Origin: Pontiella sp.
GTDB taxonomy: Bacteria; Verrucomicrobiota; Kiritimatiellia; Kiritimatiellales; Pontiellaceae
Direction: 5' to 3'
NCBI GenBank assembly: GCA_050290185.1
Contig: JBNKHE010000006.1
Span: 192,001-256,000 of the forward strand
Length of the DNA stretch: 64,000 nucleotides
This document shows, one piece after another, positions 14,898-52,274 of the stretch (position 1 is its first letter; every line of letters starts with the position of its first letter). The notes beneath the pieces are model-generated. The model worked only from the letters and a program-made list of their open reading frames with translations, had not been told where the DNA came from and did not search any database. Both the position numbers and the translations under genes were made by a program.

Positions 14898-15054
14898 AAT
14901 CTTCATTTCATCCCTCTGGTGTTTTGCGGAGACCTCTATTTGGGCAGCGTGCAGTCGGACGTGGCTCCCTTAACTGCTCGGCCCGCGATCCACCCCCGGC
15001 CACCCGGTGAATGCTTCCGCTCAATGAAGGTTGAATATCCATGGGGTATTCCTC

Positions 15055-25374: not shown

Positions 25375-26088
25375 CTACTTTATCTTTTCTGGCTTGGCCG
25401 GTTTCTCGGGCTTGGCCGGCTTTTCCGGTTTCGCAGGCTTTTCTGGCTTGGCCGGCTTTTCCGGTTTCTCCGGTTTCGTGGGTTTTTCCAGCTTGTCTGG
25501 ACGCGATGAATGGATTGCGCTCATGACATCTCCGACCTTGAGATCGTAAGATTGATAGATCTGCCCCCAGCCCATCTTGGCAGCACGCATATCAAGAATG
25601 CCTTTGCCTGTTTCGGCATCGAACAGAGCCTTTACGATATCCTCGTAAGAGGCCCCTTCGGGGAGCGTAGCTTGCGCCAATCCCAAGGCCAGCACCACGC
25701 CACCATATCCCAATTTCCCGGTCGTGTTTTCGACAACGATCGTTTGGTCCACGAGCTCGGTCTTTTGGACCTGGGTTACGGTTCCATCTTCATTGACGAC
25801 ATCGATCATAACAGGATTCCCCTCTTCGTCGACGACAGGGGTTTCAACCTGGATCACATAGCTTAACGAATCGCCCATGCGCAATGAATCAACCAGTGTT
25901 TTGGTATTCTCGCCGGCAAAATCCGTGAATTTTGCCTCGATCTTGGCGGGGGCCTTTCCTTCGCTACCGCTGAGGATCGTTTGTTCCGCGTCCTGCTCCA
26001 TGGCGGCATCATCTGCATAAATGGCCGGAATAAGCATCGCGAGAGCGGCCACACCTGTCAGTACTCGTGTATATGCCTTCGTAATCAT
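25375..26088 (-). CDS. secreted protein with C-terminal (KPEKPA)n tail
   Basis: Signal peptide, AGGAGG RBS, MGWGQI motif, low-complexity tail. Confidence 0.8.
   Translation of the reverse strand: MITKAYTRVLTGVAALAMLIPAIYADDAAMEQDAEQTILSGSEGKAPAKIEAKFTDFAGENTKTLVDSLRMGDSLSYVIQVETPVVDEEGNPVMIDVVNEDGTVTQVQKTELVDQTIVVENTTGKLGYGGVVLALGLAQATLPEGASYEDIVKALFDAETGKGILDMRAAKMGWGQIYQSYDLKVGDVMSAIHSSRPDKLEKPTKPEKPEKPAKPEKPAKPEKPAKPEKPAKPEKIK
25382..25490 (-). repeat. coding tandem repeat (9/18 bp units; KPE/KPA)
   Basis: KLEKPTKPEKPEKPAKPEKPAKPEKPAKPEKPAKPEK. Confidence 0.85.
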
Positions 26089-29893: not shown

Positions 29894-31891
29894 TCAGTCA
29901 ACCCAGGGACGGGCCTGTTTAAAGACGAGGGTACCATCGGCCAAAAACTTGAATTCCACCTCCATCGCAAAATCAGGCCGGCCTTCGGCACCGTATGCCC
30001 GCTGGAAATGATCGTGCACCCGCTCCAACTCATCAGCCAGCTGAACCGCCTGGGTCTGCGACAGCACATGACTGCCTTTTGGTATCAGATTGGAATGGCG
30101 AATATACTGGATCTCGTATTCGCTCTGACCGCTAAGTTCGGAAATCAGGAATTCATCCGGAACAACCCCATCATCCGGATTGGTCACCAGCGATTCGCCC
30201 ACCTGTACGTTGACATAGTATCCCCGCCAGTCGGAATCATACAGGTTCCGGGTTACGGCCACCCCGTTGGCCGATTCGTCGCGATAGCTTGGATGGCACA
30301 GGACCCCCATGGCGGAGCGGAGGTGATCAATCCGGTAGAATTCGCGCTCCTCAAACGCCCGGAAACTCCAATTCCCGGCCCAGATCTGCTTGATCGTATG
30401 GCTCAGATGCCCTTCATCGGGCTTGTGCGTTTTTGAATCATAGAGCCCGGCCCCGCTGAAGCCCTCAAGATCTTCCACATTCGCACTCGAGCGGCATCGG
30501 ATCCGCGTATCCGGCGCAAACCGATGTTGCAGCGCCCCCAGTGCTTCCATCATGTCGGGCGGCAGGGTTCCGGCCCGGATCTGTCTGCGAAACTTTTTCA
30601 GGGCATCTTCCCGCACCACCTCATTGGTCTTGAAAGCCGGATCGGCCATCATGGTTTCAGCCACGGCATAGAATCCGTTGGACTGCATGAAACGGTCGTA
30701 CATCGAAAACGGCACCGCATAGCCCTCCGGCGCCATGCCACCGGGCATGATATGCCGAAGCTCGGCGACATTGGCCGACTTGGAACCATAGGCATCGTAG
30801 GCCGACCGCCCGATATCAGCCAGGGCCGCAATCGCCGATACGGAAAGATTGCGCACAGGGACCTGCGGTTTGGCGGGCCGGATCGATGCCTGGAACGTAT
30901 CAACCTCCACCTGAGATGCGGGCTTAATGGTATAGCCATCGGGCGTGAGTTCAAAACGCACATTCCGCCCGATCAGCGGCTGGATCTCCGGCCGGGTGGA
31001 GGCATTCCGGATATACGCATTGGGAATACCGTCCTGCCGGGCCTTCAGGTTGACGTGGGAGAGCGGCGTCTGCGGATCTTCCGTAATGAGACCGGCAACA
31101 CAGGCAAGATCATTTGGCACCGACCGGAAAATCACGATATCGCGCGGCGTCAAGCGGATCCCCGGTTCTGCCACCATCAATCGACCATAGGCACAACCTA
31201 AATGGAGAGGACATTCCTGCCGGCTCCCCAAAAGCTGATCCGTCGAGATGGTCCGCACGCAAGAGTTGCTGTAAGCCGCCCGTTCCTCCTCGAGCAGGAT
31301 TCGTTGCGTCTCCCCGCTGGGATGATACAACAGGCGATCCCCGGCAAACGGCATGGCTTCGGCAATGAGTCTGTAAGCGGTTTCCACGAACGGAAAACCC
31401 ACGGGATCGGAAGGCCAGAACTCGAGGGTGTAGACGCCGGCCGTCTCCCGGTCGTCTGTCGGAACCGAAACGCGGTCATGCGCAATGATGCTTCCCGCCA
31501 GATTTTTCCGGTTCCGGTCCCGAAAGTAGGTGACGGCTTCAAATGCATCGCTTCCGTCGCTGTATCCAAGAATCTCGCGGGCGAAGCAGTAATGATACAC
31601 ATGCTTTTTCGAATTCATGAAATAGAGCCTGGGCCGATCCGAACCAGCATCCATGATGACAAACTTGAGTTCAAACACCCCGTAGGCGCCCGGAACATCA
31701 TCGCGACTGGCCAGCATCTCAAAACTCAGCCGGTCCGGGACCTCCAGCGCCCCGTCCGACGGAAGCAATGGCTTTCCGTTAATCAGCGGGCGTGACGACG
31801 CCTGCGGGACCGGATCAGCGTCCGCAGCCCGCGCGGTGATTGAAGCCAGCACACAGCAAAGAATCAACCACGCTGTTTTCAGTTTTGGCAT
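29894..31891 (-). CDS. signal-peptide-bearing PEP/pyruvate-binding (PPDK nucleotide-binding) domain protein
   Basis: YGSKSAN, RSSANVEDLEGFSGAGLYDS, EVEFK..KQARP. Confidence 0.82.
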   Translation of the reverse strand: MPKLKTAWLILCCVLASITARAADADPVPQASSRPLINGKPLLPSDGALEVPDRLSFEMLASRDDVPGAYGVFELKFVIMDAGSDRPRLYFMNSKKHVYHYCFAREILGYSDGSDAFEAVTYFRDRNRKNLAGSIIAHDRVSVPTDDRETAGVYTLEFWPSDPVGFPFVETAYRLIAEAMPFAGDRLLYHPSGETQRILLEEERAAYSNSCVRTISTDQLLGSRQECPLHLGCAYGRLMVAEPGIRLTPRDIVIFRSVPNDLACVAGLITEDPQTPLSHVNLKARQDGIPNAYIRNASTRPEIQPLIGRNVRFELTPDGYTIKPASQVEVDTFQASIRPAKPQVPVRNLSVSAIAALADIGRSAYDAYGSKSANVAELRHIMPGGMAPEGYAVPFSMYDRFMQSNGFYAVAETMMADPAFKTNEVVREDALKKFRRQIRAGTLPPDMMEALGALQHRFAPDTRIRCRSSANVEDLEGFSGAGLYDSKTHKPDEGHLSHTIKQIWAGNWSFRAFEEREFYRIDHLRSAMGVLCHPSYRDESANGVAVTRNLYDSDWRGYYVNVQVGESLVTNPDDGVVPDEFLISELSGQSEYEIQYIRHSNLIPKGSHVLSQTQAVQLADELERVHDHFQRAYGAEGRPDFAMEVEFKFLADGTLVFKQARPWVD

Positions 31892-31928
31892 TCAGTACCC
31901 TTGTCCTCTTTATCGACACCCCGGCCAA

Positions 31929-33191
31929 TCATTCCTGCGCGTTGGAGTCAACAAACCAACCGCTGTAGTTGACGTCATGGCGATCCGCGATTGCCCTCAT
32001 GTATTTCGAGTTCTTGAAGACAGCATTCAGATTGGAAAGCGTTACCTTGCCGCGCAGCACAAGCAGGTAGTATCGGCTTCCATCCCGAGCCTTTTCCTCG
32101 GATATCTCGCCAACCTTGAAGGCCGTTTCCCCTATTTTTGAAACCAGGGCCTCCAGCGGTGGCTTTTCATCCGACCACAAGTAATACGAAACCACCTGCT
32201 CGCGGCAAATATCCGTTCCGCGGGAGCGAACGGTTGCGAGGGTTTCCAAATCCTCCGACTCATGCTGGGCAGCCCAAAAGCGGTCATAGGTTTGCTGTAG
32301 CTGTTCCTGTGTGACCTGAACGGTTTCCGCGCCGGCGCAATTCGCGATCTGTTCCGCCAAAAACTCATTCAAAGGATACAACGCATCAAAGTGCGAGGCG
32401 CCTTTAATAGCAAAGCAGTGTAGTTTTGGATTCTTGTTCGCCGCCGCCATCTGTTCCAACTGCCCGATGTTCCCGCCGCTTCCTTCGATCAGATAGGTGG
32501 GCGATGAAATCGCGTTGATATAGACGGCCGGAGACCGAAGCGCATCCTCCTTCTTGTTCGCCGGATCATAGTTCACCGAATCCGGCCCATAGGCCGACGG
32601 CGCCGATACGGCACCAAATGCAAATACGGCCTTGAACTCCTTCGTGGCCTCGGCCGTCAGCAGCGCCAACGTTCCGCCTGTGCTGTGGCCGCCCAGATAA
32701 ATCTGCTTTGGGTCGACATAAGGTACTTTTTGAAGATATTTCAGTGCAGCCAAAACATCGTCTACTTCCCCCAGAAACGATTCCTGTTTCCCCGGATTTC
32801 CGCAGCTTCCCCGGAAGCTGGGATACATCATCACCACGCCGGCTTCATGATATGCCAGCGCGGATTGATCATTGTCATAGGAGGAGGGCTCCCAGATCCA
32901 TTCGCCTATACCACCCGGAGGGAAACCGCCCGTTATCCAGATGATCGCCGGATATTTTTTATTCACGTTCTCGGGCCTACTTAGATAGGCCTGCATATCA
33001 CCGATCGCTGTTGGATACTTTACGATGGAAAACGCACTATCCGGCGGCTTGGCCAAGGCGCTCTTGTCGCTGATTGTGCGAACCAGCTCCGTCTTAAAGC
33101 CCTTGCGCGCCTCAAGAAGCGCAGTTTCTGCAGTTCCGCCATATACCAGGGAGAAGAAGAATGTGAACGTTGCGATCAGTTTGAATTTCAT
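31929..33191 (-). CDS. secreted alpha/beta hydrolase (S9-like) with extra C-terminal domain
   Basis: Signal peptide, GGHSTGG nucleophile motif, GASHF. Confidence 0.85.
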   Translation of the reverse strand: MKFKLIATFTFFFSLVYGGTAETALLEARKGFKTELVRTISDKSALAKPPDSAFSIVKYPTAIGDMQAYLSRPENVNKKYPAIIWITGGFPPGGIGEWIWEPSSYDNDQSALAYHEAGVVMMYPSFRGSCGNPGKQESFLGEVDDVLAALKYLQKVPYVDPKQIYLGGHSTGGTLALLTAEATKEFKAVFAFGAVSAPSAYGPDSVNYDPANKKEDALRSPAVYINAISSPTYLIEGSGGNIGQLEQMAAANKNPKLHCFAIKGASHFDALYPLNEFLAEQIANCAGAETVQVTQEQLQQTYDRFWAAQHESEDLETLATVRSRGTDICREQVVSYYLWSDEKPPLEALVSKIGETAFKVGEISEEKARDGSRYYLLVLRGKVTLSNLNAVFKNSKYMRAIADRHDVNYSGWFVDSNAQE

Positions 33192-33323
33192 GGTTCTCCT
33201 TTTATATAATATCGCGTACAGGACGCATGCATATGCGATCCGTTAGCCCGTTGTACCATTCATGGATTCGTGACAAAATACGAAACGTTTAAGATCAACA
33301 TCAAGGGATGGAGCGGAAGGCGA

Positions 33324-33389
33324 TGAAACTGCAATGTTCACCAAACACCCCGAAACCACAATCACCTTGCGGATGATTTTTCCATCGGG
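33324..33389 (-). repeat. degenerate leuS 3'-end copy (PDGKIIRKVIVVSGCLVNIAVS)
   Basis: In-frame translation matches the LeuS C-terminus; the stop codon is lost. Confidence 0.85.
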
Positions 33390-33947
33390 AAAACCGTACC
33401 TTTTGGCGGGTTTGACGGCAGCTTCACTTTTGTCGTTGGAGGCTCAGGCAGGACTCATTGATGCTGCGGCCAACTAATGTGATTTTTGCCACGAAAAGGC
33501 ACAAGGATTCACAAAAAGAAAGCACGCAGTTTTGTACTCCCCGTTAGCTTTGCATTTTCCTGCCAGCTTATCTTTACCAAAAGATGCACAAGAGACTCAT
33601 AACCATGAGAAGCATAAAGGATTCAATGCGTTCCTTTTTGCGTATTGGAAGCGTTCACTACGTTCCTTATCTGCTTCGCAGATTATCGGCGCGTTGTTTC
33701 GCGAGGGTTAAAATCCATTGGGTTTGGACTTTGCCGCGCCAGGTCGTTTGTGACTATTCGCTCGTAACTTTTCATTCACAATATTTAATCGCCGGAGCAA
33801 TAGTTACTGACCCAATCCGCATCGCACATCAACCCATTCAACTTCCCGTCTAATCTCACAACAAAATATTGAGCTTTCATTTTGAATATATAATTATGCT
33901 CTCTTAAACACATCTCATGTGTATTAAATCATAGAAAGGTTGTTTCC

Positions 33948-34484
33948 ATGAAAATCGCTCGTCTCATCAAGTTTAGTCTCATGTCCGTTGCGACCATCAC
34001 CCTCCTTACCGGATGCGGTACAATTTCCGGCATTAACGCTTCTAAAGGACAAACTATAAGGAATGCATCCAAGTACGATCAGATTGCCGTAATGGATTTC
34101 TCCAATAAAACAGCGAAGAAAAACGCAGGCGTCATTTTTGCCGATCGTATTGCTGACAAACTGGAAGCTAAAGGCGGATTTAAAAACGTTACGCGTAATA
34201 AGCCGGAGGGTAATGCGCTGGTCATATCCGGCACGATCACGCGTTGTGAAGATGGTAATGCAACTGCACGTATGTGGATTGGATTGGGCGCGGGAAGCTC
34301 ATACTTTGACGCCGATGTAAAGTTTAGCGGGAATTTGGAATCCAGTGAATGGGGCACCATAACGGTTGATAAAAACAGCTGGGTGCTGGGTGGTGCAGTG
34401 GCGGCATCTCAGGATGTAGATTATTTCATGAATGAAGCTGCAGATAAAATATGCGAAGAGCTTGAGAAGACAACCACATTATAA
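33948..34484 (+). CDS. DUF4410-like lipoprotein
   Basis: Lipobox LLTGC; G..T.R.WIGLGAGSS motif. Confidence 0.75.
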   Translation: MKIARLIKFSLMSVATITLLTGCGTISGINASKGQTIRNASKYDQIAVMDFSNKTAKKNAGVIFADRIADKLEAKGGFKNVTRNKPEGNALVISGTITRCEDGNATARMWIGLGAGSSYFDADVKFSGNLESSEWGTITVDKNSWVLGGAVAASQDVDYFMNEAADKICEELEKTTTL

Positions 34485-34516
34485 TCACGCTGACCACAAG
34501 ATCGGAAACAACAAAC

Positions 34517-35176
34517 ATGAAGAAGAAACAACTACTCATCCTCCCGCTCTTAGCCCTTGTATTTCTTGAAACAGGTTGTACGTCCTATAGCTTCCGAGGC
34601 GCTCATGCCACACCCGCCCCGACAAATCCCGTTAGTCTGGATAAAAAATACAAACTGACAAGCTACAACAATAGTTTCAAGGCATCTGCAACTCCCTGGT
34701 CCATAACCGGCTACGGAGCAATCAAGCTCTCCAAAAGAGATATTGAAAGACAACTCGTCGATCAATATCCCAATTACTTCACCCGCGATGAACAGGGGAT
34801 TCCAATCAAAGTATCTGTTGATCTCGAAAACACGAAGCGACACATGTGGGGCCTCGTGCCCTATTTGGCAACCCTCGGAATCTATCCCGCGAGGATTATA
34901 AATTTTGAGGACGACTGCGCGGTTACCGTCAGCGTTCTCAACGCAAAAAAAACGGGAAATGTACGTTTCCGAAGCAACTCATGGCTCAGTGTCTGGACAC
35001 CGTTCGGTTTAACAAGAAAAGATAAACCGGATAACTTTACAGGCGAACACCGACACGGCAGTGGTGTTATGATCGCGCCACACCTAAGCTCCAAATGCGC
35101 AACCGACCAGAAGGAAACCTATTTGGTCGAAGTATGCGATGAAGTGGCCGCAATAATTATGTCTTGGCCCAACTGA
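34517..35176 (+). CDS. hypothetical lipoprotein
   Basis: Signal peptide ending ETGC; co-oriented with the preceding lipoprotein. Confidence 0.75.
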   Translation: MKKKQLLILPLLALVFLETGCTSYSFRGAHATPAPTNPVSLDKKYKLTSYNNSFKASATPWSITGYGAIKLSKRDIERQLVDQYPNYFTRDEQGIPIKVSVDLENTKRHMWGLVPYLATLGIYPARIINFEDDCAVTVSVLNAKKTGNVRFRSNSWLSVWTPFGLTRKDKPDNFTGEHRHGSGVMIAPHLSSKCATDQKETYLVEVCDEVAAIIMSWPN

Positions 35177-35202
35177 CCGTCGACACTCGCTGGTTAAGAC
35201 GG

Positions 35203-35238
35203 AAAGAATGACTGGGTTTCATATTCCAGTCATTTTTT
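35203..35238 (+). terminator. intrinsic terminator
   Basis: aatgactgg...ccagtcatt stem followed by a T-run. Confidence 0.7.
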
Positions 35239-35241
35239 GCG

Positions 35242-35310
35242 TTACGAAACCGCGATGTTCACAAGCCGGCCGGAAACGACGATGACTTTGCGAATGGTTT
35301 TTTCTTCCGA
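35242..35310 (-). repeat. leuS 3'-end copy ([22 protein letters not shown])
   Basis: 69 bp in frame, including the stop codon. Confidence 0.92.
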
Positions 35311-35437
35311 ATGAGGCCTCGTTGCCGAGTCCAACCCGGCTCATGGGGCGAGCCCCTATTGGACTTTACCGGAGACCATGTTGCACGAAAACAGCGTTGA
35401 GTTAGCCCCCGCTGTGGATTCTAATGGGTGAAACATT

Positions 35438-37219
35438 ATGAAGATTCTACTGATCACACCTCCGTTGCTTCAACCCAACACGCCTTATGCCGCCACGCCG
35501 CTGCTCACGGCGTGGCTGCGGAATAACGGACATGATGCGGTTCAGGCTGATCTTTCGCTGGAACTGTTGCTTAAACTTTTTTCCAGGGAGGGGGTGGCGG
35601 CGCTCTGCCGAACGCTGGAAGCGTACCCGGAGGCGGAGGCTTTTCTGGAAGCAGAGCCGGATTATCTTGAGACCATTGATGAGGTGATGGCCTTTTTGCA
35701 GGATCAAAATCCGGCGGCTTCCAAACAGATTGCGCGGCGCGGCTGGCTTCCTGAAGGCCCGCATCTCTACCATGCCTACGAGCAGGAGGAGCAGTTCGGA
35801 TGGGACTTTCGCGGCCTCGACGAGGCGGATCGCGCACGGCATCTGGCCAGTTTGTATCTCGACGACCTCGCCGAAGCCGCCAAACTGGCCGATCCGAATT
35901 TTGGTTTTTCCCGCTATGCGGAAAAGCTCGGCGCCAGCCTTCCCCGGTTCGGAAAACTACAGGAAACGCTGGAGGCGCCCCCGTCCCTGTTTTCTTCTTG
36001 GCTGGTCGATCTGACAGACAGGCAACTGCAAAAACATGCGCCGGACATGGTGGCTCTGACGGTTCCATTTCCGGGATGTCTCTTAGGGGCGCTAACCATT
36101 GCCCGCCGAATCAAACAAACCGTTCCCGATATGCACGTCACCATCGGCGGCGGTTATGTGAATACGGAGCTACCCGAACTGCGCGATCCCTCCATTTTCG
36201 ATTATGTCGATTCCATCACCCTCGATAGCGGCATGCTTCCGTTGCTGCAGCTGGCCAATCAAGCCACACCCATCCGAACCTTTGTCCGCGAGGGCGGAGC
36301 GGTTCGGTATTATGAAGACGCCGCAACACCCATTGCCCACAACGCCTTGCCCGCCCCCGTATATGACGGTCTTGAGCTGAACCGCTATTTCGGCCTCTTT
36401 GAAATGCTCAATCCGGTTACACGGCTCTGGTCGGACGGGCGCTGGAACAAGCTTATGCTGGCGCACGGCTGCTGCTGGCGCCGCTGTGAATTCTGCGATA
36501 CGTCGATCGATTATATCCGCCGCTACGACCCCGCCGAACCGTCCGTGATCTGCGACTGGATCGAAGCCATGATTGCGCAGAGCGGTTTTAACGGATTCCA
36601 TTTTGTGGATGAATCCCTGCCGCACGATCTACTGGACGGATTATGCGATGAAATCCTGCGCCGCGGGCTGGAGATTGAGTGGTGGGGCAACATTCGTTTT
36701 GAAAACCGCTTTTCAAATGCGCTGATTCAAAAAATGGCCGCCTCAGGCTGTATTGCCGTAACCGGCGGCTTGGAAACCTGCAACGACCGGACCTTAAAGC
36801 TGATGCGCAAAGGTATTACGGTAAACGGCGCAACTCAGGTGCTTGAAAATCTGGCCGATGCGGGAATCCTGACCCACGCCTACCTGATGTATGGGTTTCC
36901 AACCCAGACCGAACAGGAAACGCTTCAGGCGCTGGAAACCATTCGCCGCCTGTTTGATGAAGGCATCCTGCACTCCGCCTTCTGGCACTGTTTTGCCCTG
37001 ACCGCACACAGCCCGATCGCATGTGATCCCGAGAAATATTCCATCGCGCTGAAAGAGCCGCCGCCTGCCGACTTTGCCCGCAATGAAATTCCGTTCGATG
37101 GACACTTCGACCACGATCCAAAAATTATCGGCGAGGCCCTGCGCGTTGCCACCTACAACTATATGCACGGCATTGGCTTCGACCGCCCCGTTGATCAGTG
37201 GTTGGACGCTAACCCCTGA
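35438..37219 (+). CDS. B12-binding-type radical SAM protein
   Basis: AHGCCWRRCEFC, FHFVDE, WWGNIRFE, YLMYGFP. Confidence 0.9.
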   Translation: MKILLITPPLLQPNTPYAATPLLTAWLRNNGHDAVQADLSLELLLKLFSREGVAALCRTLEAYPEAEAFLEAEPDYLETIDEVMAFLQDQNPAASKQIARRGWLPEGPHLYHAYEQEEQFGWDFRGLDEADRARHLASLYLDDLAEAAKLADPNFGFSRYAEKLGASLPRFGKLQETLEAPPSLFSSWLVDLTDRQLQKHAPDMVALTVPFPGCLLGALTIARRIKQTVPDMHVTIGGGYVNTELPELRDPSIFDYVDSITLDSGMLPLLQLANQATPIRTFVREGGAVRYYEDAATPIAHNALPAPVYDGLELNRYFGLFEMLNPVTRLWSDGRWNKLMLAHGCCWRRCEFCDTSIDYIRRYDPAEPSVICDWIEAMIAQSGFNGFHFVDESLPHDLLDGLCDEILRRGLEIEWWGNIRFENRFSNALIQKMAASGCIAVTGGLETCNDRTLKLMRKGITVNGATQVLENLADAGILTHAYLMYGFPTQTEQETLQALETIRRLFDEGILHSAFWHCFALTAHSPIACDPEKYSIALKEPPPADFARNEIPFDGHFDHDPKIIGEALRVATYNYMHGIGFDRPVDQWLDANP

Positions 37220-38795
37220 GAATAAACTGCTCGGCGGCCTTCATTCCGTCGAGCGCGGAACTGACGATTCCGCCGGCATAGCCCGAACCCTCACCGCACG
37301 GATACAATCCCTTGGCGGAGCAGGATTCGCCGTTTGGATCGCGCAGCATCCGGACCGGGGCCGAACTGCGGGTTTCGGCGGCATAGAGTGTCGCCTCCTC
37401 CAGCCGGGTGTCGTTCAGCTCGCGCAACATCCTGGGGATAGCCGACTGCAGCGTTTCGGAAACAAAGTCCGGTAGCATATTCTGAAGCAGCGCCGGAACC
37501 GCTCGGGTACAGGAACGTTCCCCGGGAAGGTCGCCGACGCTTCCTTCCAGAAAATCAATGAGCCGTGCAGCGGGCACTCCGTAATCGGAACCACCCGCTT
37601 CAAAGGCCGCGCGTTCCATCTTTTTCTGGAACTCGACTCCCGCCAGTGCAGGATTTCCCGCTTCATGCCCAAAATCCGCCATATCCACCGGAACCAGAAA
37701 GGCCGCATTGCCAAACGGCTTGTCTCGCGCCGATAGACTCATCCCGTTGGTGGTCAACATTCCTTCCGAAGAGGCGCAGGAAATAACCAGGCCACCGGGA
37801 CACATACAGAAGCTGTAGCAGCGGCGGGCATTCCCCTCTTCCTTCCGGGTCAACCGGAAACTGGCGCTACCAAGGTTCGGAAGCTTTGCCCAGCGGCCAT
37901 ACTGTGCCGTATCAATCCGGTGCTGCGGAATTTCGAGCCGTACGCCAACCGCGAAAGGCTTGGCTTCGATCGCTACATTGCTTTCGGCCAGCATGGAATA
38001 GATGTCGCGCGCACTATGGCCTGTCGCGAGGAAGCAGGCATCGGTGCGGATTTCCTTGCCGGAAACCACCACCCCTCTCAGTGCGCCGTTTTCAATCTGG
38101 ATCTTCTCCAGTCTGGAATTAAACGCACAAGCTCCGCCCAATTCCCAGATCCGGTTGCGGACGGCGGGAATAATCTGCGTCAAATCGTCGCTTCCGATAT
38201 GCGGGGCGGAATCAATCAGGATGTCGGGAGACGCACCGCAGGCGACCAGTGTTTCAAAAAAGCGGCGGATGCGGGCGCGGTCTTTTGAGCGCGCCGTCAG
38301 CTTCCCGTCGGAAAAGAGCCCTGCACCACCCTCGCCATAAAGGACGTTGCTTTCCGTATTGAGCTCCCCGCTTTTCCAGAATGCTTCAACCTGCTCCGAG
38401 CGAGCATCAGTTTCCGCACCACGCTCAATCAGCAAGGGTTTATACCCCGCCTCCGCCAGCGTCAGCGCCGCCATCAGCCCGGCCGGCCCGGCACCGATCA
38501 CAACCGGCGGATGTTCGCCCTTAACATGGTCCGGGAAAACGAGTGCAGGCTCCGGCTTCGGGGTCTTTTCAATCTGATTGGGTTGCAAGCGCGGCGGTTT
38601 ACCCCGGTAGTCGACGTCCACCGAAAGAATGTAGCGCGGCTCTTGATCCTTTTTTCGGGCGTCCAGCGAACGTCGGATAATTTCAAGGTTATCAAGCTGC
38701 TCTTTTCCGCATCGAAGCTTCCGGCAGATCGCCTTAAGCACATCGCTCTCGCCGTAGGCCAGTCGCACAGATAGTTGGTTGATTCGTAGTTTCAC
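37209..38795 (-). CDS. FAD-dependent oxidoreductase (COG2509-like)
   Basis: IGAGPAG, GEGGAGLFSDGKL, FCMCPGG, GEGSGYAGGI. Confidence 0.9.
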   Translation of the reverse strand: MKLRINQLSVRLAYGESDVLKAICRKLRCGKEQLDNLEIIRRSLDARKKDQEPRYILSVDVDYRGKPPRLQPNQIEKTPKPEPALVFPDHVKGEHPPVVIGAGPAGLMAALTLAEAGYKPLLIERGAETDARSEQVEAFWKSGELNTESNVLYGEGGAGLFSDGKLTARSKDRARIRRFFETLVACGASPDILIDSAPHIGSDDLTQIIPAVRNRIWELGGACAFNSRLEKIQIENGALRGVVVSGKEIRTDACFLATGHSARDIYSMLAESNVAIEAKPFAVGVRLEIPQHRIDTAQYGRWAKLPNLGSASFRLTRKEEGNARRCYSFCMCPGGLVISCASSEGMLTTNGMSLSARDKPFGNAAFLVPVDMADFGHEAGNPALAGVEFQKKMERAAFEAGGSDYGVPAARLIDFLEGSVGDLPGERSCTRAVPALLQNMLPDFVSETLQSAIPRMLRELNDTRLEEATLYAAETRSSAPVRMLRDPNGESCSAKGLYPCGEGSGYAGGIVSSALDGMKAAEQFILRG

Positions 38796-38918
38796 GCCGA
38801 TCCCTTAAATAATTTTCAGCAATCTATTCTCAAAATTTCAGCCGTGCAAGACGGGACGGGTTAATACAGAAAGGCCCCTTTGTGGACAAGGATGCGGGGC
38901 TTTCGAGTTCTTGAGGTG

Positions 38919-38942
38919 GTTCGACTACGAAAGCGCGATGTT
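38919..38942 (-). repeat. vestigial leuS 3'-end copy (NIALS* plus tcgaac)
   Basis: gttcgactacgaaagcgcgatgtt versus gttcgactacgaaacggcgatgtt at 42531-42554; includes 6 nt downstream of the stop. Confidence 0.7.
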
Positions 38943-39061
38943 GCCAGGTTCGATAGCGCAGGGTAATAGCAAAATCATTATTTGGCACTTCGTTGCCCCG
39001 CATGCGCGGAGCCTCTTTCGCCCTACAGGCTCAGGTCATAGGACCGATCCCTGCCCGCTTA

Positions 39062-40114
39062 TTAAATCTCCTGTGAGGGTTTGCCGAAGTCCTTGATCGT
39101 CGCTTCAAGCGGTGTGCCACTGTATTTCTTCAGAAGTCTGGCGGCATCTCTTTCCTGACTAGAAGTGCAAGGGTTGTTGCGATAGTCCATGACATCGGTG
39201 TTGAAGTACTCGTCGGCAAAATCTTCCATATCATCCAGCCCATCGATATAGGTTTTTACCTTCGGATCCATCTTGAGCTTGGCGAGAAGTTCTTTTGCCT
39301 GTGCGGCGTGTGGCGCCTTTCTAACCTCCGCAAGCACCGATGCGTTTTCATAGGCAAAGTAGGGATCGGTTTCATATTTGGCCTCGATTTCGCCGAAGAG
39401 CATTTCGGAAAATTCGTCTAGCTCGGCTTTACTGCCCTTCTTTGCGAGGTATTTCCCATTCAGCCAGGTAATGGCATCAAAAATCAGGTCTTCGCCGGCC
39501 CAGACGTGTCCGCCTGGGAAATAGCGAAGACGACCGTCCTTTTTAATGCGCTTTTGGAATGTGATGGTCATGTCCCAGCGGTTGAAGCAATAGCCTCCGC
39601 ACAGCCCGTAGGCCAGCGCATCGTTTTGATAGTTATTCCCAGAATCTCCGGCCCCGCATGGAATAATTCCGATGATGTTGCTCTTCATCTTATTCGCCAA
39701 CCAGAAAGCCTCGCGGCCACCGCCGGAAAAGCCGGAGGCGTAGCAACGTTTTTCATTCACATGAAAGTGGTCAAATACATCCTCGACCATGGCTTTGATG
39801 GCTTGTTGCGATTTATCGTTGCGGTTGCTCGACTCCCTGGACATTACCAGAATCCAGTTGTTCTTCTCTGCGCCGCGAACATAGCGCTGAATTCCGCTAC
39901 CTTTCCCGCCGCCCGGATGCATGACGAAGAGAACCGGATATTTATCAGCTCGGTTGGTGTCATAGCTGGTCGGGAGGTATAGAAGGTAGGAGAAGTCCCG
40001 ATCGTCCTCGCACTTGATCCCCTCAATAATCTGACCGGTCTTGTGTTCCTGGGCAAACAGTGAAGATGAAAGAGCAATAAGCAGAGCGGATGCGGCAAGA
40101 CATTTTTTAATCAT
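39062..40114 (-). CDS. secreted alpha/beta-hydrolase/esterase-like protein
   Basis: Signal peptide, YLLYLP, YPVLFVMHP, GFSGG, GGHVW. Confidence 0.8.
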   Translation of the reverse strand: MIKKCLAASALLIALSSSLFAQEHKTGQIIEGIKCEDDRDFSYLLYLPTSYDTNRADKYPVLFVMHPGGGKGSGIQRYVRGAEKNNWILVMSRESSNRNDKSQQAIKAMVEDVFDHFHVNEKRCYASGFSGGGREAFWLANKMKSNIIGIIPCGAGDSGNNYQNDALAYGLCGGYCFNRWDMTITFQKRIKKDGRLRYFPGGHVWAGEDLIFDAITWLNGKYLAKKGSKAELDEFSEMLFGEIEAKYETDPYFAYENASVLAEVRKAPHAAQAKELLAKLKMDPKVKTYIDGLDDMEDFADEYFNTDVMDYRNNPCTSSQERDAARLLKKYSGTPLEATIKDFGKPSQEI

Positions 40115-40233
40115 AACTTTTCCTTCGGCATAAGATTGGTTAATCCCTGAAAAGACAATGACACTCCTAAGGAGGAGGACGCAAATCAAAAGCGATACCT
40201 CTCCGCCAGCAAGATGTAACCGAGATCCCCGAT

Positions 40234-40284
40234 CACCAGCCGCCCGGGGACGACGATGACTTTGCGGATGGTTTTTCCTTCGAG
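40234..40284 (-). repeat. truncated leuS 3'-end copy ([17 protein letters not shown])
   Basis: 17 codons in frame. Confidence 0.9.
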
Positions 40285-40297
40285 TCAGAGATGTATG

Positions 40298-41029
40298 TTA
40301 AACCTCGACTACGCCCTTGCAATCGGGATAGGCGGAACAGCCCCAGAATGAGTTGCCGGCGTTCTGGCCGGAACGGGCCGTGCGGAGCACCATCGGCTTG
40401 TTGCATTTCGGGCAGGCGGGAACCGGGTCGTTCGTCTTTTGTTTCTGGCGCTCCTTCAAGCGTTCGGCGGCTAGCAACTCGCTATAACCGCCCTCGGAAA
40501 CAAACTGCTCCTCCAACGCCGCGATCTGCTGATCGAGTAGAAAGTTGGTCTGGTGGATCAGGCAGATCAGCGCGTTGGCCCGAACCGCCGGGTTTTCATG
40601 CTCCAGCCATTCGGCATAGAGCATGGAGCGCTCCTGATCCGTCAAATCAGCCAGATTGGACCGATCCTCCCGATCTTTCTTGAACTTCCTCGGCACATTC
40701 CGCACCGCAAGAGCTTCCGCCGAGTTCAGCTCCCACATTTCCAGCCGCCGATGCCGCAGGAAATCCTCGTAGTCGAGCAGGAGTTCTTCAAGGCTGGCCC
40801 GCGCAACATTCACCAGCCGCAGTTCCGTCTGGCTGGAGGTGGCGGAAGCCCGGCTTCCCTCCGCAATGTTCTGCCGCCCGCTCCGCGCGGCCTGCACCAT
40901 CTGGTCGATGGTTCGCGAACGGGAATCGACAAACTTTTCACAGAACCAAACCGTGGCATCATAGATGATCGTCGCCGTCTGGAACGTCGCCAACTTCCGG
41001 TATCCCCCGCTCTTCCGTATTTTTCCCAT
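40298..41029 (-). CDS. four-helix-bundle (23S IVP/Avd-like) protein with suffix domain and topoisomerase-type C4 zinc finger
   Basis: GGYRKL, DQMVQAARSGRQNIAEGS, ARASLEELLLDYED, CPKC...FWGCSAYPDC. Confidence 0.85.
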   Translation of the reverse strand: MGKIRKSGGYRKLATFQTATIIYDATVWFCEKFVDSRSRTIDQMVQAARSGRQNIAEGSRASATSSQTELRLVNVARASLEELLLDYEDFLRHRRLEMWELNSAEALAVRNVPRKFKKDREDRSNLADLTDQERSMLYAEWLEHENPAVRANALICLIHQTNFLLDQQIAALEEQFVSEGGYSELLAAERLKERQKQKTNDPVPACPKCNKPMVLRTARSGQNAGNSFWGCSAYPDCKGVVEV

Positions 41030-41104: not shown

Positions 41105-41173
41105 CTACGAAACCGCAATATTCACCAACCGGCCGGGGACGACGATGACTTTGCGGATGGTTTTGCCTTCCGA
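41105..41173 (-). repeat. leuS 3'-end copy ([22 protein letters not shown])
   Basis: 69 bp in frame with stop; 15 nt differences from leuS over the last 66 nt but only one amino-acid change (V/I). Confidence 0.95.
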
Positions 41174-41331
41174 GTGAGAACTCGTTGCCGCGACCAACTC
41201 AGCTCATGAGCGAGCTAGGACTAGTCTTTTTTTCAGAAGCGAAGTCTGAAAACATTATTTCATAGGATCGCCCCCGGTTCGGCGGCGGAAAAAAGGAGCC
41301 GAGACAACACTCGGCTCCGCGCTTCATAATC

Positions 41332-41553
41332 CTATCCCTTGGGAGGATAGGGATCTTTTCGGTAGGTTCGTTCTTCCCGAATTCTACCATCAGGACGGTG
41401 AACAAACACCTGACCTTTCCGCGGTATCGCGAGATCACGCGCCTGATCAAGTGCTTCGGATTGAGTTCCTGCGACTGAAGAACAGCGTGATGCGCCTTCG
41501 CGCTTAACACCCCATTGATCACCGTTTTTCACTACATGATACTTTTCTTTCAT
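41332..41553 (-). CDS. DUF2188-family small protein
   Basis: YHVV..W.VKREGASR....TQ.EA...AR...VHRPDGRIRE..TY..DPYPPKG; AAGGAG RBS; downstream hairpin at 41295-41318 plus T-run. Confidence 0.88.
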   Translation of the reverse strand: MKEKYHVVKNGDQWGVKREGASRCSSVAGTQSEALDQARDLAIPRKGQVFVHRPDGRIREERTYRKDPYPPKG

Positions 41554-41612
41554 TATCTAGCTCCTTGTTAGTTTAGAGCTGGGAGGAGGCTTCCTCCTCC
41601 CAGCAGTTTGCC

Positions 41613-41717
41613 TTATACGTAGAAGCAGAACGGTTTCCCGTCGCGTCTGTACACTCGGCGCTTAGTGATGTAGTGCACGAAATATTTGCAATACACCTTG
41701 CGTCGTGGTTTGCCCAT
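41613..41717 (-). CDS. 34-aa basic small protein MGKPRRKVYCKYFVHYITKRRVYRRDGKPFCFYV
   Basis: Below the ORF-track cut-off; AAGGAGG 6 nt before ATG; followed by a perfect 12-bp hairpin at 41578-41604. Confidence 0.65.
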   Translation of the reverse strand: MGKPRRKVYCKYFVHYITKRRVYRRDGKPFCFYV

Positions 41718-41892
41718 TTCGGGCCTCCTTACGGCATTGCCGCTTAAGAGTTTCCTTCTTGACGCATTAGGCAGGAGCTGAGATAAACAAGCTTTGAAAC
41801 GGAGCTACTGCCTAGTGCATCGGCTCTTGTCATCGGTACTGGTAATACCTATGACACCGACAGCTGTTAACCCTCGAGGTTAGCAGCTTTTT

Positions 41893-42342
41893 TTATACTT
41901 CGTCATGCATAGCATCCTCCCTTTCATTATCTTCATTCGAATCAGCATCTAAACGCACGATGACAATCATCTTTTCGGCATAGACCTCTGGATCGTATGA
42001 AATTGTTTTTTTTGAATAGTTTATTCCACAATAATCGAGGAAAGCCTTTGCCGCTACATGAGCCGTTAGATTGTCAGTATCGTTAGGGTTAGAAGGCCGT
42101 AATTGTAGCTTTGCAACGTCCTCTATTTTTTCTTGGGTAAATCCCAAAGCGATTGCATTGCGGTTACGATCATAATAAAGCTCCACGAACCAGTCCCCGT
42201 CTTTTATCCCAAGGCGTTTCAGTAATCCTTGCGATAAGCCTATATGGCCTTGTTTTCGAATACTAACCTTCGATACGTAGCTTCCTTTAACATTTCTGAA
42301 TCGCTCGAATTCGAACCCCTCAATTGTTCTTCTCGTTCTCAT
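41893..42342 (-). CDS. hypothetical protein, AT-rich (possible AbrB-like beta fold)
   Basis: Open frame with atypical codon usage; start uncertain (42342 ATG or 42408 GTG). Confidence 0.65.
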   Translation of the reverse strand: MRTRRTIEGFEFERFRNVKGSYVSKVSIRKQGHIGLSQGLLKRLGIKDGDWFVELYYDRNRNAIALGFTQEKIEDVAKLQLRPSNPNDTDNLTAHVAAKAFLDYCGINYSKKTISYDPEVYAEKMIVIVRLDADSNEDNEREDAMHDEV

Positions 42343-42418
42343 ACCAGCACCTGAACAAATTCTTTTATCCGTGTCAATTAACAAATTGTGCCTTTCTGCG
42401 ACCACCAAGCGGCTTGCA

Positions 42419-42434
42419 CCACAATATATTGTGG
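42419..42434. promoter_or_regulatory. perfect 16-bp palindrome CCACAATATATTGTGG (NrdR-box-like)
   Basis: Fits the acaCwAtATaTwGtgt pattern; lies upstream of 41893-42342. Confidence 0.5.
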
Positions 42435-42480
42435 TTATTCCATGTTTTTAAATTAACCAGATGTTCTATGAGATGTTTAT

Positions 42481-42509
42481 AAAAAAAGCCCCGAAAATAC
42501 GGGGCTTTT
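42481..42509 (-). terminator. leuS intrinsic terminator
   Basis: aaaagccccg-aaaata-cggggctttt with a long T-run on the minus strand. Confidence 0.85.
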
Positions 42510-42536
42510 GTGCATTAGACATATGATTGAGTTCGA

Positions 42537-45059
42537 CTACGAAACGGCGATGTTCACGAGGCGGCCGGGGACGACGATTACCTTTCTAACCGTCTTTCCT
42601 TCTAACCAGGATTGGACCTTTTCGGCGGCGAGGGCGATGGCTTCGATCTCTTCCTTAGTGGCGGAGGTGGAAACCTTGATCTGATCGCGGACCTTTCCGT
42701 TGACCTGGACGGCCATGCCGATTTCATCGCGCTTGAGGGCTTCTTCATTCACGACGGGCCAGTCGGCATTCATGATGCCGGCGGCGTGGCCGAGTTCAAC
42801 CCACAGCTCTTCGGCGATGTGCGGCGCGAAGGGCGAGATGAGCAGGATGACGTTTTCAATGGCATCGCGGAAAACTACCTTAGCGGATTCGGAACTGTCG
42901 TCCGAAATCTTGAGGGCGTCGATGGCGTTCATCAGTTCCATGATCGCGGCAATGGCGGTGTTGAAGGTGAAGGCGCCGTCGAGTCCGCGGGTGATCTGCA
43001 GGATCGTTTCGTTGGTCTTGCGGTAGAGGTCGCGTTCGGCGTCGGCCATGTCGGCGATAACCGGCTTTTTGCCTTCAACCGACTTCAGCAACTCGAGGTT
43101 GTCGGCGACGCGGCGCCAGATGCGTTTGAGGAAGCGGGATGCGCCTTCCACACCGGAGTCCTGCCACTCGGCTTCCTTTTCGGGTGGACCGATGAAGAGC
43201 GTGTAGAGGCGGACGGTGTCGGCGCCGTATTTCTTCAGCAGTTCTTCGGGACTAACCACATTTCCCTTGGATTTGGACATCTTGTAGAGGTTTCCGTCGG
43301 GGCCCTTTTTACAGATCATACCCTGCGTAAAGAGGTGTTTGAACGGCTCGTCAAAGTCGATCAGGCCGAGATCCTTGATGGCTTTGGTGAAGAAGCGGGC
43401 ATAGAGCAGATGCAGAATGGCGTGCTCGATGCCGCCGATATATTGGTCGACCGGCATCCATTTGTTGGAAATTGCGGAATCGATCGCCTGCGAAGCATCC
43501 TGTGCACTGAGATAGCGTAGGAAATACCAGGAGGAATCGACGAAGGTGTCCATGGTGTCGGATTCGCGCGTGGCTGCCCCGCCGCATTTCGGGCAGGTGC
43601 AGTTCATGAAGGATTCCGAGCCCTTGAGCGGCGATTCGCCTTCGGCCTTGAATTCAACATCGGTCGGCAACAGGATCGGAAGGTTTTCTTCCTTTTCCGG
43701 AACCACACCGCAGTCGGTGCAGTAAACCATCGGAATCGGTGCGCCCCAGTAGCGCTGACGGGAAATGAGCCAGTCGCGCAGGCGGAAGTTAATCTTTCCG
43801 GTGCCAAATCCTTTTTCTTCGGCGAGGGCGATCATCTGCTTGATCGCTTCGCGGTTGTCCACGCCGGAAAAGTCACCGGAATCAACGCAGGTGCCGTCTT
43901 CGGTATAGGCGTCTTCCATTTCGTCAAGAACGAGCGAGCCTTCCGGATTCTGGATGGAAAGCTTGATCGGCAGGTCATATTTCTTGGCGAAGGCAAAGTC
44001 GCGGGTGTCGTGCGCCGGAACCGCCATGACCGCGCCGGTGCCGTACATGAGGACATAGTTTCCGACCCACAGCTCGATTTTTTCGCCGTTGTAGGGGTTG
44101 ATCAGGTAGCGCCCGGTAAAGCGGCCTTCCTTCTCCACTTCGTCGGCTTCGCGGTCGAGGTTGGTGAGCTTGGAGCTGGCCTTGATAAATTCGAGCACCT
44201 CTTCTTCCTGCGGCAGGCCGGCGATGAGGTTTTTCAGCTCAGGATGTTCGGGAGCCAACGCCATATAGGTGCAGCCGTAGATGGTATCGACGCGGGTTGT
44301 GTAGCAGGCGATTTTATCAACATTGTCCCCTGCCCCGTCTTCGCGCGGCACGATCGGGAAGTCGATTTCCGCGCCTTCGGAGCGGCCGATCCAGTTTTTC
44401 TGCATGGTCTTCACGCGGGTCGGCCAGCCGTCGAGCGTGTCGAGATCATCGAGCAGGCGCTGGGCATAGTCGGTGATTTTGAAGAACCACTGGTCCATCG
44501 ATTTTTGGTCGACTTCGGAGTCGCAGCGCTCGCAAGCGCCGTCGACCACCTGCTCGTTGGCCAGTACGGTCGCGCACGACGGGCACCAGTTGACGTTGGA
44601 ATTCTTTTTATAGGCGAGGCCCTGTTTGTAGAACTGGATGAAAAGCCACTGCGTCCATTTATAGTAGTCGGGCATGCAGGAGGTGACTTCCTTGTCCCAG
44701 TCATACATGCAGCCCCAGGCGCGGAGCTGTTCTTTCATGGTGGCAATGTTGGCGGTGGTATATTCCGCCGGCGGTGTGCCGGTCTTGATAGCGGCATTTT
44801 CGGCGGGCAAACCAAACGAGTCCCAGCCCATCGGAGTCAGCACATCGAAACCCTGCATCTTCTTATAGCGCGCAACGGCATCGCCAATGATGTAGTTGCG
44901 GCCATGACCCACATGGAGCTTGCCCGACGGATACGGGAACATCATCAGGCAGTAGTACGGGTTTTCCGCCGCCGCCAGATCGGTATTAAAATCGCCGTTC
45001 TCGTCCCAGAAGTTCTGCCACTTCTGTTCAATCTCGTTGTAGGGATAATCGTTGTTCAT
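42537..45059 (-). CDS. leuS: leucine--tRNA ligase
   Basis: [41 protein letters not shown]. Confidence 0.98.
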
Positions 45060-50950: not shown

Positions 50951-51928
50951 TTATTCCCAGACGCCATAAATCGGCATGGAGCAATCCGGGCAGGTTCCAT
51001 TCTTTATCACGTTTTTCATTACGTGGTAGCCATGCCGCTCGATCAGGATCTTCTCGCAATTTGGACACCAGGTCTGCTCCCCTGCCCCATCAGACATATT
51101 GCCGACATAGACAAACTTCAGTCCGCATTCGATAGCGATCTGCCGTGCGCGCAGAATTATTTCCGTGGGCGTTGGCGGGAGATGCTTTAATTGGTTTTGA
51201 GGAAAAAACCTCGAAAAATGAAGGGGTGTCGATTCTCCAAGATGTTCCACGACCCAATCGCAAAGCTGCGTTGTTTCATCTTTCGAGTCATTCAATGTTG
51301 GAATCAGTAGATTGGTTATCTCAAGCATCACGCCACATTCCTTCATCACTTCCAGTGCTTTAAGCACGGGTTTAAGTCTCGCATCGCAAATATCCCGGTA
51401 GAAATCGTCGGAGAATGACTTTAGATCGACGTTGGCGGCATCCACATATTGGCAGATATGACGCAATGGTTCGGGATTGATGAATGCAGCGGTAACCAGA
51501 ACATTCTTGATTCCAAGTTCTGATGAGGCCTTACAACAATCATACGTATATTCGTACGAAACCAGGGGTTCGGTATAGGTATAAGCTATGGACGGACAAT
51601 CCCGTTTTTTTGCCATTTCTACGACATTTTCCGGGTAAACGTCCGATCCGCCTGCACCATATTGAGCGCTTTGTGAAATTGTCCAGTTTTGACATTGCTT
51701 GCAATGGAGATTACATCCGGCCGTCGCGAGGGAGAGAATTTTCGATCCAGGAAGAAAATGGTACAGAGGCTTCTTTTCAACGGGATCTATGTTTAGCGAG
51801 CAAGGGTGCGCATAGGTCGTGCACTGTATCCTTCCACCTTTGTTCTCACGAACCCGGCAATCACCGATTTCACCCGGTGCTAAATCACATCCTTTTGGGC
51901 AAATCGTGCATCTAATTCTCGTCTTCAT
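50951..51928 (-). CDS. amrS: AmmeMemoRadiSam system radical SAM enzyme
   Basis: DPVEKKPLYHF, GCNLHCKQCQNW, AYTYTEP, PLHFSRF. Confidence 0.92.
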   Translation of the reverse strand: MKTRIRCTICPKGCDLAPGEIGDCRVRENKGGRIQCTTYAHPCSLNIDPVEKKPLYHFLPGSKILSLATAGCNLHCKQCQNWTISQSAQYGAGGSDVYPENVVEMAKKRDCPSIAYTYTEPLVSYEYTYDCCKASSELGIKNVLVTAAFINPEPLRHICQYVDAANVDLKSFSDDFYRDICDARLKPVLKALEVMKECGVMLEITNLLIPTLNDSKDETTQLCDWVVEHLGESTPLHFSRFFPQNQLKHLPPTPTEIILRARQIAIECGLKFVYVGNMSDGAGEQTWCPNCEKILIERHGYHVMKNVIKNGTCPDCSMPIYGVWE

Positions 51929-52274
51929 CCTTTGTGCTTTCAGTGAAGAGGCTATCCAAGCCTTCAAAAGCTGAAAAGCCCCCGAGTTTTATAGCGCTTT
52001 CCGCCGAACTTCCATACCCCTTCATTTTGTGTTTTTCATGTTCGTGATCATGACAATAAACACATAGGAGTTCCCAGTTGCTGCCATCAGGAGGATTATT
52101 CTGATGGTTGTGATCTTTATGGTGAACGGTCAGCTCTTTCAATTTAGCCCCGGAAAACTCTCGGCTGCAGCTTCCACATACATGTGGAAAGAGCTTCAGG
52201 GCCTGGGCGCGATACCCCTTCTCCCTTTCAGCCATTTCCTGTTGAATTCGTTCAAATTTACTGGGATTTTTCAT
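51912..52274 (-). CDS. YajD-family HNH nuclease
   Basis: YRAQALKLFP.VC..C.REF, LTVHH.DHNH.NNP.DGSNWELLC.YCHD.EH. Confidence 0.9.
   Translation of the reverse strand: MKNPSKFERIQQEMAEREKGYRAQALKLFPHVCGSCSREFSGAKLKELTVHHKDHNHQNNPPDGSNWELLCVYCHDHEHEKHKMKGYGSSAESAIKLGGFSAFEGLDSLFTESTKDEDEN

Follow-up and report, generated by a model that had tools for sequence, protein, structure and literature searches.

Why should an essential housekeeping gene be followed by a string of its own displaced 3′ ends, and how did the genes lying between these ends get there? The question is raised by the leuS locus of a Pontiella genome (3.58 Mb in 163 contigs), and it touches a wider one. Hotspots of horizontal transfer beside core genes often lack any mobile element, leaving the question of how a single gene can be inserted there when no second flank is available. 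At leuS, the best reading is that what varies is the cargo, while the leuS protein stays unchanged.

The leuS locus and its displaced tails

The window, i.e., the whole stretch of 64,000 nucleotides that was analysed, carries an array in which five tail copies separate five cargo blocks of 0.8–3.5 kb. Its parts, starting from leuS, are as follows.

42537–45059, minus strand: intact leuS, 840 aa (TIGR00396, 1058 bits), whose 3′ end is the landing site
42562–42617, minus strand: rare-codon patch in the working leuS end, 56 nt identical to G063
41248–42536, minus strand: cargo 1, GC 0.45, with a 149-aa ORF, a DUF2188 gene and hairpins
41893–42342, minus strand: the 149-aa ORF of cargo 1, of no family
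41332–41553, minus strand: the DUF2188 gene of cargo 1
41213–41247, minus strand: decayed 5′ arm of the first copy, out of frame and interrupted by stops, with its start at about −101 nt from the leuS end
41171–41212, minus strand: 42-nt insert that splits the W-L-E codons after Leu
41105–41170, minus strand: displaced leuS tail, the subject of this study, 21 codons and the stop
40298–41029, minus strand: cargo 2, a four-helix-bundle protein with a suffix domain and a C4 zinc ribbon
40233–40296, minus strand: second displaced tail, beginning right after the cargo-2 stop codon and cut 6 codons before its own stop
39062–40189, minus strand: cargo 3, a 375-aa ORF with a weak esterase-like match below the cut-off
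38919–38942, minus strand: 24-nt remnant of the leuS end and the first downstream bases, 22/24 identical
35438–38795: cargo 4, an FAD-dependent protein (37209–38795, minus strand) and a radical SAM protein (35438–37219, plus strand)
35242–35385, minus strand: third long copy, consisting of a tail (35242–35307, three amino-acid changes), the insert (35308–35349) and a decayed arm beyond
33948–35176, plus strand: cargo 5, GC 0.45, a DUF4410 gene and a 219-aa ORF of no family
33322–33386, minus strand: the most distant and most decayed tail, with five amino-acid changes and the stop lost

LeuS sequences place the window in Pontiella (Kiritimatiellales): those of two genomes of the genus are identical to proteins labelled Pontiella desulfatans and P. 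sulfatireligans, and that of another genome of the order to one labelled Tichowtungia aerotolerans. The leuS gene lies 2.6 kb from dnaA, and in many relatives it is found on the dnaA contig. Two of the cargo blocks have a GC content of 0.45 vs 0.57 for leuS, and the decay of the copies rises roughly with distance from the gene. Elsewhere in the window, three large paralogous genes on the minus strand (8335–20367), probably hybrid sensor kinases, bear β-propeller-like repeats and shared 300-nt blocks (76–88%), and an ORF of no Pfam family (25375–26088) has a terminal run of a 9-nt Pro-Glu-Lys repeat. A small HNH-domain gene (51912–52274) stands between genes for a radical SAM protein and an epimerase, near the origin region.

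An assembly artefact has been ruled out, since the copies differ by 20–35% and contigs from public runs bridge most junctions, with breaks at 28–30 nt common to two copies. The array depth is even in contigs of the four public runs, which come from one study possibly including the source sample, and single contigs span 31000–39043, 41133–42648 and 41230–43184 without any difference. No circle back-joint or empty site of this strain was found in the contigs of the four runs, which drop rare forms; such joints as were seen belong to more distant relatives, or one of their sides is short. A 319-nt contig of run X1 has a leuS end with the codons of the 41105 copy joined to the start of the four-helix-bundle gene, and a contig of run X2 from the same study carries a G062-type junction; thus, relatives with other alleles share the samples. 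A structured RNA or an attC site was rejected as a candidate: there is no Rfam match at the gathering level, and shuffled sequences fold as well as the flanks do (z −1.0 to 0.3). Promoter and terminator counts in the array are near the shuffle level.

An earlier note on this DNA took positions 41105–41173 for a displaced leuS end that differs from the gene almost only at synonymous sites. The tail proper ends at 41170, and the last three nucleotides belong to the 42-nt insert. A recount agrees exactly with the figures given there: against the last 66 nt of leuS, the tail has 15 differences in 12 codons and a single amino-acid change, V to I (pS 0.68, pN 0.06). The further Leu variants were also described correctly, the common codon being CTC in leuS, TTG in the 41105 copy, CTT in the 35242 copy and CTG in the 40234 copy, and the synonymous bias is present in all four long copies of the window. 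However, the 35242 copy is less conserved, with its three amino-acid changes, and the 40234 tail ends six codons short of the stop.

It had also been claimed that the neutral decay of a local duplication would not give such a bias, and simulations bear this out. When 15 substitutions are placed at random, so few amino-acid changes as in the 41105 copy are obtained in 0 of 100,000 trials. Under a model of an old local duplicate, in which the gene receives synonymous changes only and the copy evolves neutrally, the count is 0 of 19,785 trials for the 41105 copy and 115 of 19,745 for the 35242 copy.

The copies turn out to be mosaics of a decayed 5′ arm and an intact 3′ tail, which refines the earlier reading. 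In the window copies with the insert, the arm before it has stops and a shifted frame, and the tail after it is intact; hence, such a copy combines an old travelling arm with a freshly displaced end. The same 42-nt insert is present at the same site at 41171–41212 and 35308–35349 and in G064, G001 and G021, marking five arms with different cargo in four genomes; in G064, the tail is intact on both sides of it. Elements related to the insert occur free in five more genomes. A small inverted-repeat element that is dispersed in the genus (L070–L077) is likewise akin to the insert. A conserved attP-like arm upstream of the copies was considered and rejected, the shared hairpin being the insert inside a longer tail.

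The left edges of 46 copies range from −39 to −514 nt from the leuS end, and 35 of the 46 copies reach the last residue. These edges cluster at the Glu-Gly-Lys codons (7/46 at column 39), and arms begin near a cargo stop codon (−30 to +41 nt) in 19 of the 40 rows with an upstream ORF, one G063 copy being counted twice. The arm of the first copy starts about 101 nt before the leuS end, as do those in G062, G063 and G023. Five arms share a short junction word at about −101, and a contig that encodes a Y1 transposase has this word too; descent from a single junction or an enzyme could explain this sharing equally well. The junction word abutting the arm start at 41248–41268 of the window recurs in accessory regions (C4:37505, C4:48560 and C58 of the same genome, G000; L037 and L097). 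Tail codons are weakly tied to the cargo behind them (permutation 5/300 for the first 11 codons and 22/300 for the last 11), with no sharp linkage edge. The idea that the last 30 nt of the tail travel with the cargo was dropped, as a cleaned linkage test gave it no support.

Working ends, shared cargo and spread among relatives

According to the earlier note, each copy once served as a functional leuS end, here or in a donor lineage, so that the array would record successive 3′-end replacements. Comparison with relatives supports this view through the Ile majority, the nearness to relatives' working ends and the sharing of cargo. The 41105 tail has Ile, as have 30 of 39 relatives' working LeuS ends; it is closer to 31 of the 39 than to its own leuS, and only 4 differences separate it from the working ends of G004 and G007 vs 15 from its own gene. 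The proposed match of single copies to specific relatives was not obtained: no relative matches a copy exactly, so that donors cannot be named. The odd member is the resident leuS end and not the 41105 copy. Its rare-codon patch, the 33-nt core of which has at least 7 differences from the other 38 working ends (G063 excepted), was likely imported and is shared with G063 by transfer or descent.

In G021, a single contig has the four-helix-bundle gene directly behind the working leuS; the same arrangement is seen for part of the gene in G054 and, by contig overlap, in G011. In G000, G062, G063 and G069, the gene follows a displaced tail. The tail and this gene form one 875-bp alignment block (81.7%) with the G011 contig, whose start overlaps a working leuS end, and in G021 a tail remnant follows the four-helix-bundle gene. 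Similarly, a 219-aa gene lies behind the working leuS in G014, G019 and G053 and behind a copy in G002 and G004, and G042 has 1 kb of cargo 1 behind leuS at 76%.

One recent transfer is seen between two species: G062 and G063 differ at 8 positions from −24 to +1067 nt, a 1.09-kb block with 99.5% identity, vs 93% in the leuS body and 83–89% in the next gene, which encodes the four-helix-bundle protein. Both edges of the block fall within tail or arm homology, the right one 26–49 nt before the arm end. The stretch from −213 to −74 is slightly more alike than the remaining leuS, but no clear long anchor is seen for this transfer, and the array joints are too old for microhomology to be read.

In the closest pairs (18 genomes), codons for shared residues differ at 0.49–0.51 in the last 26 codons of leuS vs 0.14–0.33 in 12 of 13 other windows of the gene; the one internal exception also reaches a synonymous divergence of 0.48, and the dnaA control for this comparison is saturated. 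Relaxed codon bias at the gene end may be part of the signal. Copy edges extend from −39 to −514, but the divergence is confined to the last 26 codons, which argues against one fixed crossover at −514. Pooling 23 copies of relatives, with G063 omitted because of a 3-nt deletion, gives pS 0.59 and pN 0.12, and some copies are near their own gene (pS 0.08 in G001; 95% over 277 nt in G030).

In the order, 88 genomes were searched, 68 had a leuS-tail match and 25 of these had at least two, one second match being weak (E 0.045) and several lying on other contigs. By genus, extra tails are found in 19/40, 1/1, 5/26 and 0/1 genomes. A copy lies 0.7–5.3 kb downstream on the leuS contig, on the same strand, in 14 genomes, and G010 has one truncated copy 5.1 kb upstream of leuS. 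The same 3′-truncated leuS arm is seen at the ends of the G010 contigs C68, C169 and C214 (L033–L035), which may reflect a mobile repeat or an assembly effect. On contig C105 of G041 (L095, L096), an array of 20 kb has four long tails, the longest reaching 514 nt, around glycoside hydrolase, sulfatase and YcaO genes. Outside the order, the pattern was rare among the genomes examined. At the class level, a second, weak leuS-tail match occurs in 14 of 251 genomes, and the 6 of these 14 candidates that were fetched show no copy in the stretch taken. Across phyla, where the profile is less sensitive, an array was found at 1 of 79 loci, in an Akkermansia MAG in which two displaced tails surround PEP-CTERM and nucleotidyltransferase genes (L229:7329–12800). 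The 50 nt behind the two Akkermansia copies are nearly identical.

Such scars are not confined to leuS, and this also refines the earlier reading. An orphan downstream C-terminal copy (last 20 residues, within 12 kb, same strand) was found for 14 of 2,137 genes of the genome; the same search gave 0 C-terminal copies upstream and 0 on the opposite strand, and mid-gene segments gave 0 downstream and 1 upstream. For N-terminal segments, for which the filter is not symmetrical, there are 18 hits, mostly starts of paralogues, two of which resemble short displaced heads upstream. Targets include uvrD, nspC, a PfkB kinase gene, arsA, cytochrome and glycoside hydrolase genes, as well as mfd from a separate earlier pass. 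The pooled copies have pS 0.46 and pN 0.18, and several of the 14 genes are doubtful (repeated domains, an 88-aa copy, a 252-bp spacing). A short-frame second copy lies beside uvrD in G000, G063 and G007 among 50 genomes with a match, and the nspC scar is found in G000 only, among 27 genomes. Since the uvrD scar occurs in few genomes and the nspC scar in no other, leuS is the hotspot. On contig C4 (39334–70163) of G000, short tail-like copies lie 17 and 29 kb downstream of a carboxylesterase gene, and a kinase gene there has a near paralogue; together they may form a long array. Short copies of gene starts upstream of the gene (C10:89328–91600 and C10:18015–23622) might be displaced 5′ ends in mirror image.

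Proposed routes of capture

The array is most readily understood as a set of accessory blocks, each with a leftover leuS end, built by repeated homologous recombination within the last 25–100 nt of leuS; the probability of this reading is estimated at about 0.6. In its favour are the synonymous bias, the mosaic arms, cargo common to several genomes, the G062/G063 transfer, the varying arm lengths, scanned cargo free of recombinases, the scars at other genes, and comEC and dprA in the genome. According to this model, DNA of a relative, comprising a 3′ piece of leuS and the genes behind it, would enter the cell, be trimmed and be closed into a circle. A single crossover in the leuS homology would then give the gene the donor's end with the protein kept, place the cargo behind leuS and push the old end, together with the donor's 5′ arm, behind the cargo. 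New blocks would thus enter next to leuS, and older ones would be shifted away. A block with tails on both sides could loop out as a circle; it could also pair as a linear strand with the leuS end of any relative, whatever lies behind it, and so spread. The data fit a circle and a linear strand alike. Homology covers 40–150 nt in most copies, and the tails are 75–85% alike, which is little for RecA.

There are precedents for separate steps. When E. coli received linear DNA that was homologous at one end, 56 of 60 clones carried partial duplications of 109–950 bp, which the authors ascribe to trimming followed by circularisation and a single crossover (PMC3240628). Partial duplications at the homologous end, likewise differing in length, are found here as well, but the E. 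coli system is a laboratory plasmid with identical homology and a very low frequency (PMC3240628), whereas the leuS events are natural, repeated and between species. A circle has likewise been proposed for rhs tips (PMC2935791), and unequal pairing of repeats during transformation has been documented in pneumococcus (PMC3784515).

A broader version of this recombination model is more tentative and falls short of even odds. It holds that the 3′ ends of conserved genes serve as a general means of gene capture without an integrase, that tail-bracketed blocks are self-templating and pass between species through less than 100 nt of diverged homology, and that the Kiritimatiellales share a pool of such blocks (defence, restriction, Fic, Schlafen, hydrolases) at an origin-proximal leuS hotspot, possibly with a dedicated short-homology recombinase acting in trans.

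A rather unlikely account is homology-facilitated illegitimate recombination alone: a strand would anchor in the leuS body, its far end would join illegitimately inside the recipient's leuS end, and the rest of the old tail would come to lie behind the cargo, with neither a circle nor reuse of arms. The variable left edges agree with it, as do the arms starting at a cargo stop codon (the 19 of 40 rows above) and the presence of comEC and dprA in the genome, and the same process has been proposed for the Vibrio effector-immunity arrays (PMC5361080). However, it predicts a wholly fresh copy, while the 5′ arms seen here are decayed and share an insert. It also predicts that a long patch of leuS is co-transferred, while the block common to G062 and G063 begins just 24 nt ahead of the leuS end. 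Illegitimate recombination may still be the origin of some first captures.

Site-specific elements are an unlikely source too, in the form of remnants of islands or prophages that carried a replacement leuS end and later lost the integrase, or of small elements moved by a recombinase in trans. Such islands and prophages typically leave a displaced 3′ fragment as their scar, and e14 carries a replacement end on its attachment site at icd. The clustering of left edges at Glu-Gly-Lys and the junction word common to five arms at −101 would suit a site-specific enzyme, but the former is partly due to the 42-nt insert and to the start of the most conserved motif. The genome has 10 tyrosine-recombinase matches, all off the 281-kb leuS contig (0 PF00589 matches on this contig, C6), and 4 Y1-transposase matches; no serine recombinase was found in it. 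Around the relatives' tails, Pfam revealed no integrase, resolvase, transposase or homing-endonuclease family (89/167 ORFs at E 1e-8; 89/194 at E 1e-12), and none of these families was found in the window cargo or in 31 ORFs at the other scarred loci. The families found in the scanned cargo are Fic, Schlafen, AbiEii, methyltransferase, DpnII, AAA ATPase, peptidases, sulfatases and glycoside hydrolases. Viral contigs (3 hits) and, among the matches listed (25/45), plasmids have no lone leuS tail next to an integrase and contain whole leuS genes or host flanks instead. Also against such elements, the blocks are mostly only 0.7–5 kb long, the edges vary over 475 nt (erosion could, however, have blurred one fixed crossover site), and each of about 14 unrelated target genes would need a lost integrase of its own.

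Decayed local tandem duplications of the leuS end, or short peptides under their own selection, are very improbable: the former would suit the relatives' copies that are near their own gene (G001, G030), and two copies have a TTG within the insert from which a frame of 31 codons could start, but for the 41105 copy local duplication is contradicted by the simulations, by its greater nearness to foreign ends and by the foreign cargo between copies. As to the presumed peptide, 4 of the 9 residues in its insert part are not the same in these two copies, and the other copies are without a start, a stop or both.

Relation to known systems

The elements e14 and phage 21 integrate at icd of E. coli and restore the 3′ end of a protein gene; they encode an integrase and use one crossover site. 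Like the leuS blocks, they bring a replacement 3′ end with synonymous differences and displace the old end to the far side, but neither an integrase nor a single crossover site has been found at the leuS array. Of the features of an integrase-driven island, the displaced 3′ fragment at the distal end is present, while an integrase in the element is absent from the part of the relatives' ORFs that was scanned. A homing endonuclease with a carried C-terminal duplication would have an endonuclease gene as the inserted unit, but no homing-endonuclease family of Pfam was found in the scanned cargo.

The C-terminal displacement of rhs genes (Jackson et al. 2009) is similar in layout: behind an intact gene stands a row of displaced 3′ pieces that differ in length and have other genes between them (PMC2935791). 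As here, the newest piece is nearest the gene, and homologous recombination with a circular intermediate and no integrase is proposed (PMC2935791). However, the incoming rhs tip changes the protein, bringing a new toxin, and the sequence held in common is a long core (PMC2935791), while the leuS array belongs to an essential housekeeping gene, encodes the same peptide and gains unrelated cargo. Displaced 3′ fragments on the same strand, their variable length and a once-attached end displaced in another genome are all seen at leuS; a polymorphic-toxin host gene with a non-homologous tip is not, the host being leuS with its peptide kept.

In V. cholerae, effector-immunity modules of the T6SS are displaced sequentially (PMC5361080). 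They too are inserted at a conserved anchor, with old parts moved downstream and no integrase known, but insertion there removes the old effector and leaves the immunity gene in place (PMC5361080), while the leuS array keeps the old gene end and has mixed cargo (Fic, Schlafen, AbiEii, restriction-modification, hydrolases).

The leuS array works like rhs displacement and its scar resembles integrase-driven 3′-end replacement, yet it is a member of neither class, since the host gene is not rhs, the protein is unchanged, and neither an integrase nor a fixed site was found. No account of tail-bounded cassette arrays at housekeeping genes was met in the literature searched, mostly outside the subscription journals.

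The scar is of use in several ways. It records the route of entry, and the synonymous marks place crossovers within tens of bases. The mechanism is testable, since the array is present in a Pontiella species that has been cultured (G069). Core genes can end in codons of foreign origin, by which phylogenetic trees and codon-bias work are misled, and orphan tails provide a cheap marker for accessory and defence genes.

Finally, the array shares with integrons mostly one- or two-gene blocks, trimmed near the stop codon and added at one end. It differs from them by the absence of intI at the locus and of palindromic attC sites, its repeat being the coding tail of the host gene itself. The true integron repeats of this genome lie on other contigs. 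An integron-integrase-like tyrosine recombinase and numerous copies of a single intergenic repeat family are found on C5 (3158–4540), C15, C20, C31, C32 and many small contigs of G000, which is consistent with a large integron array.
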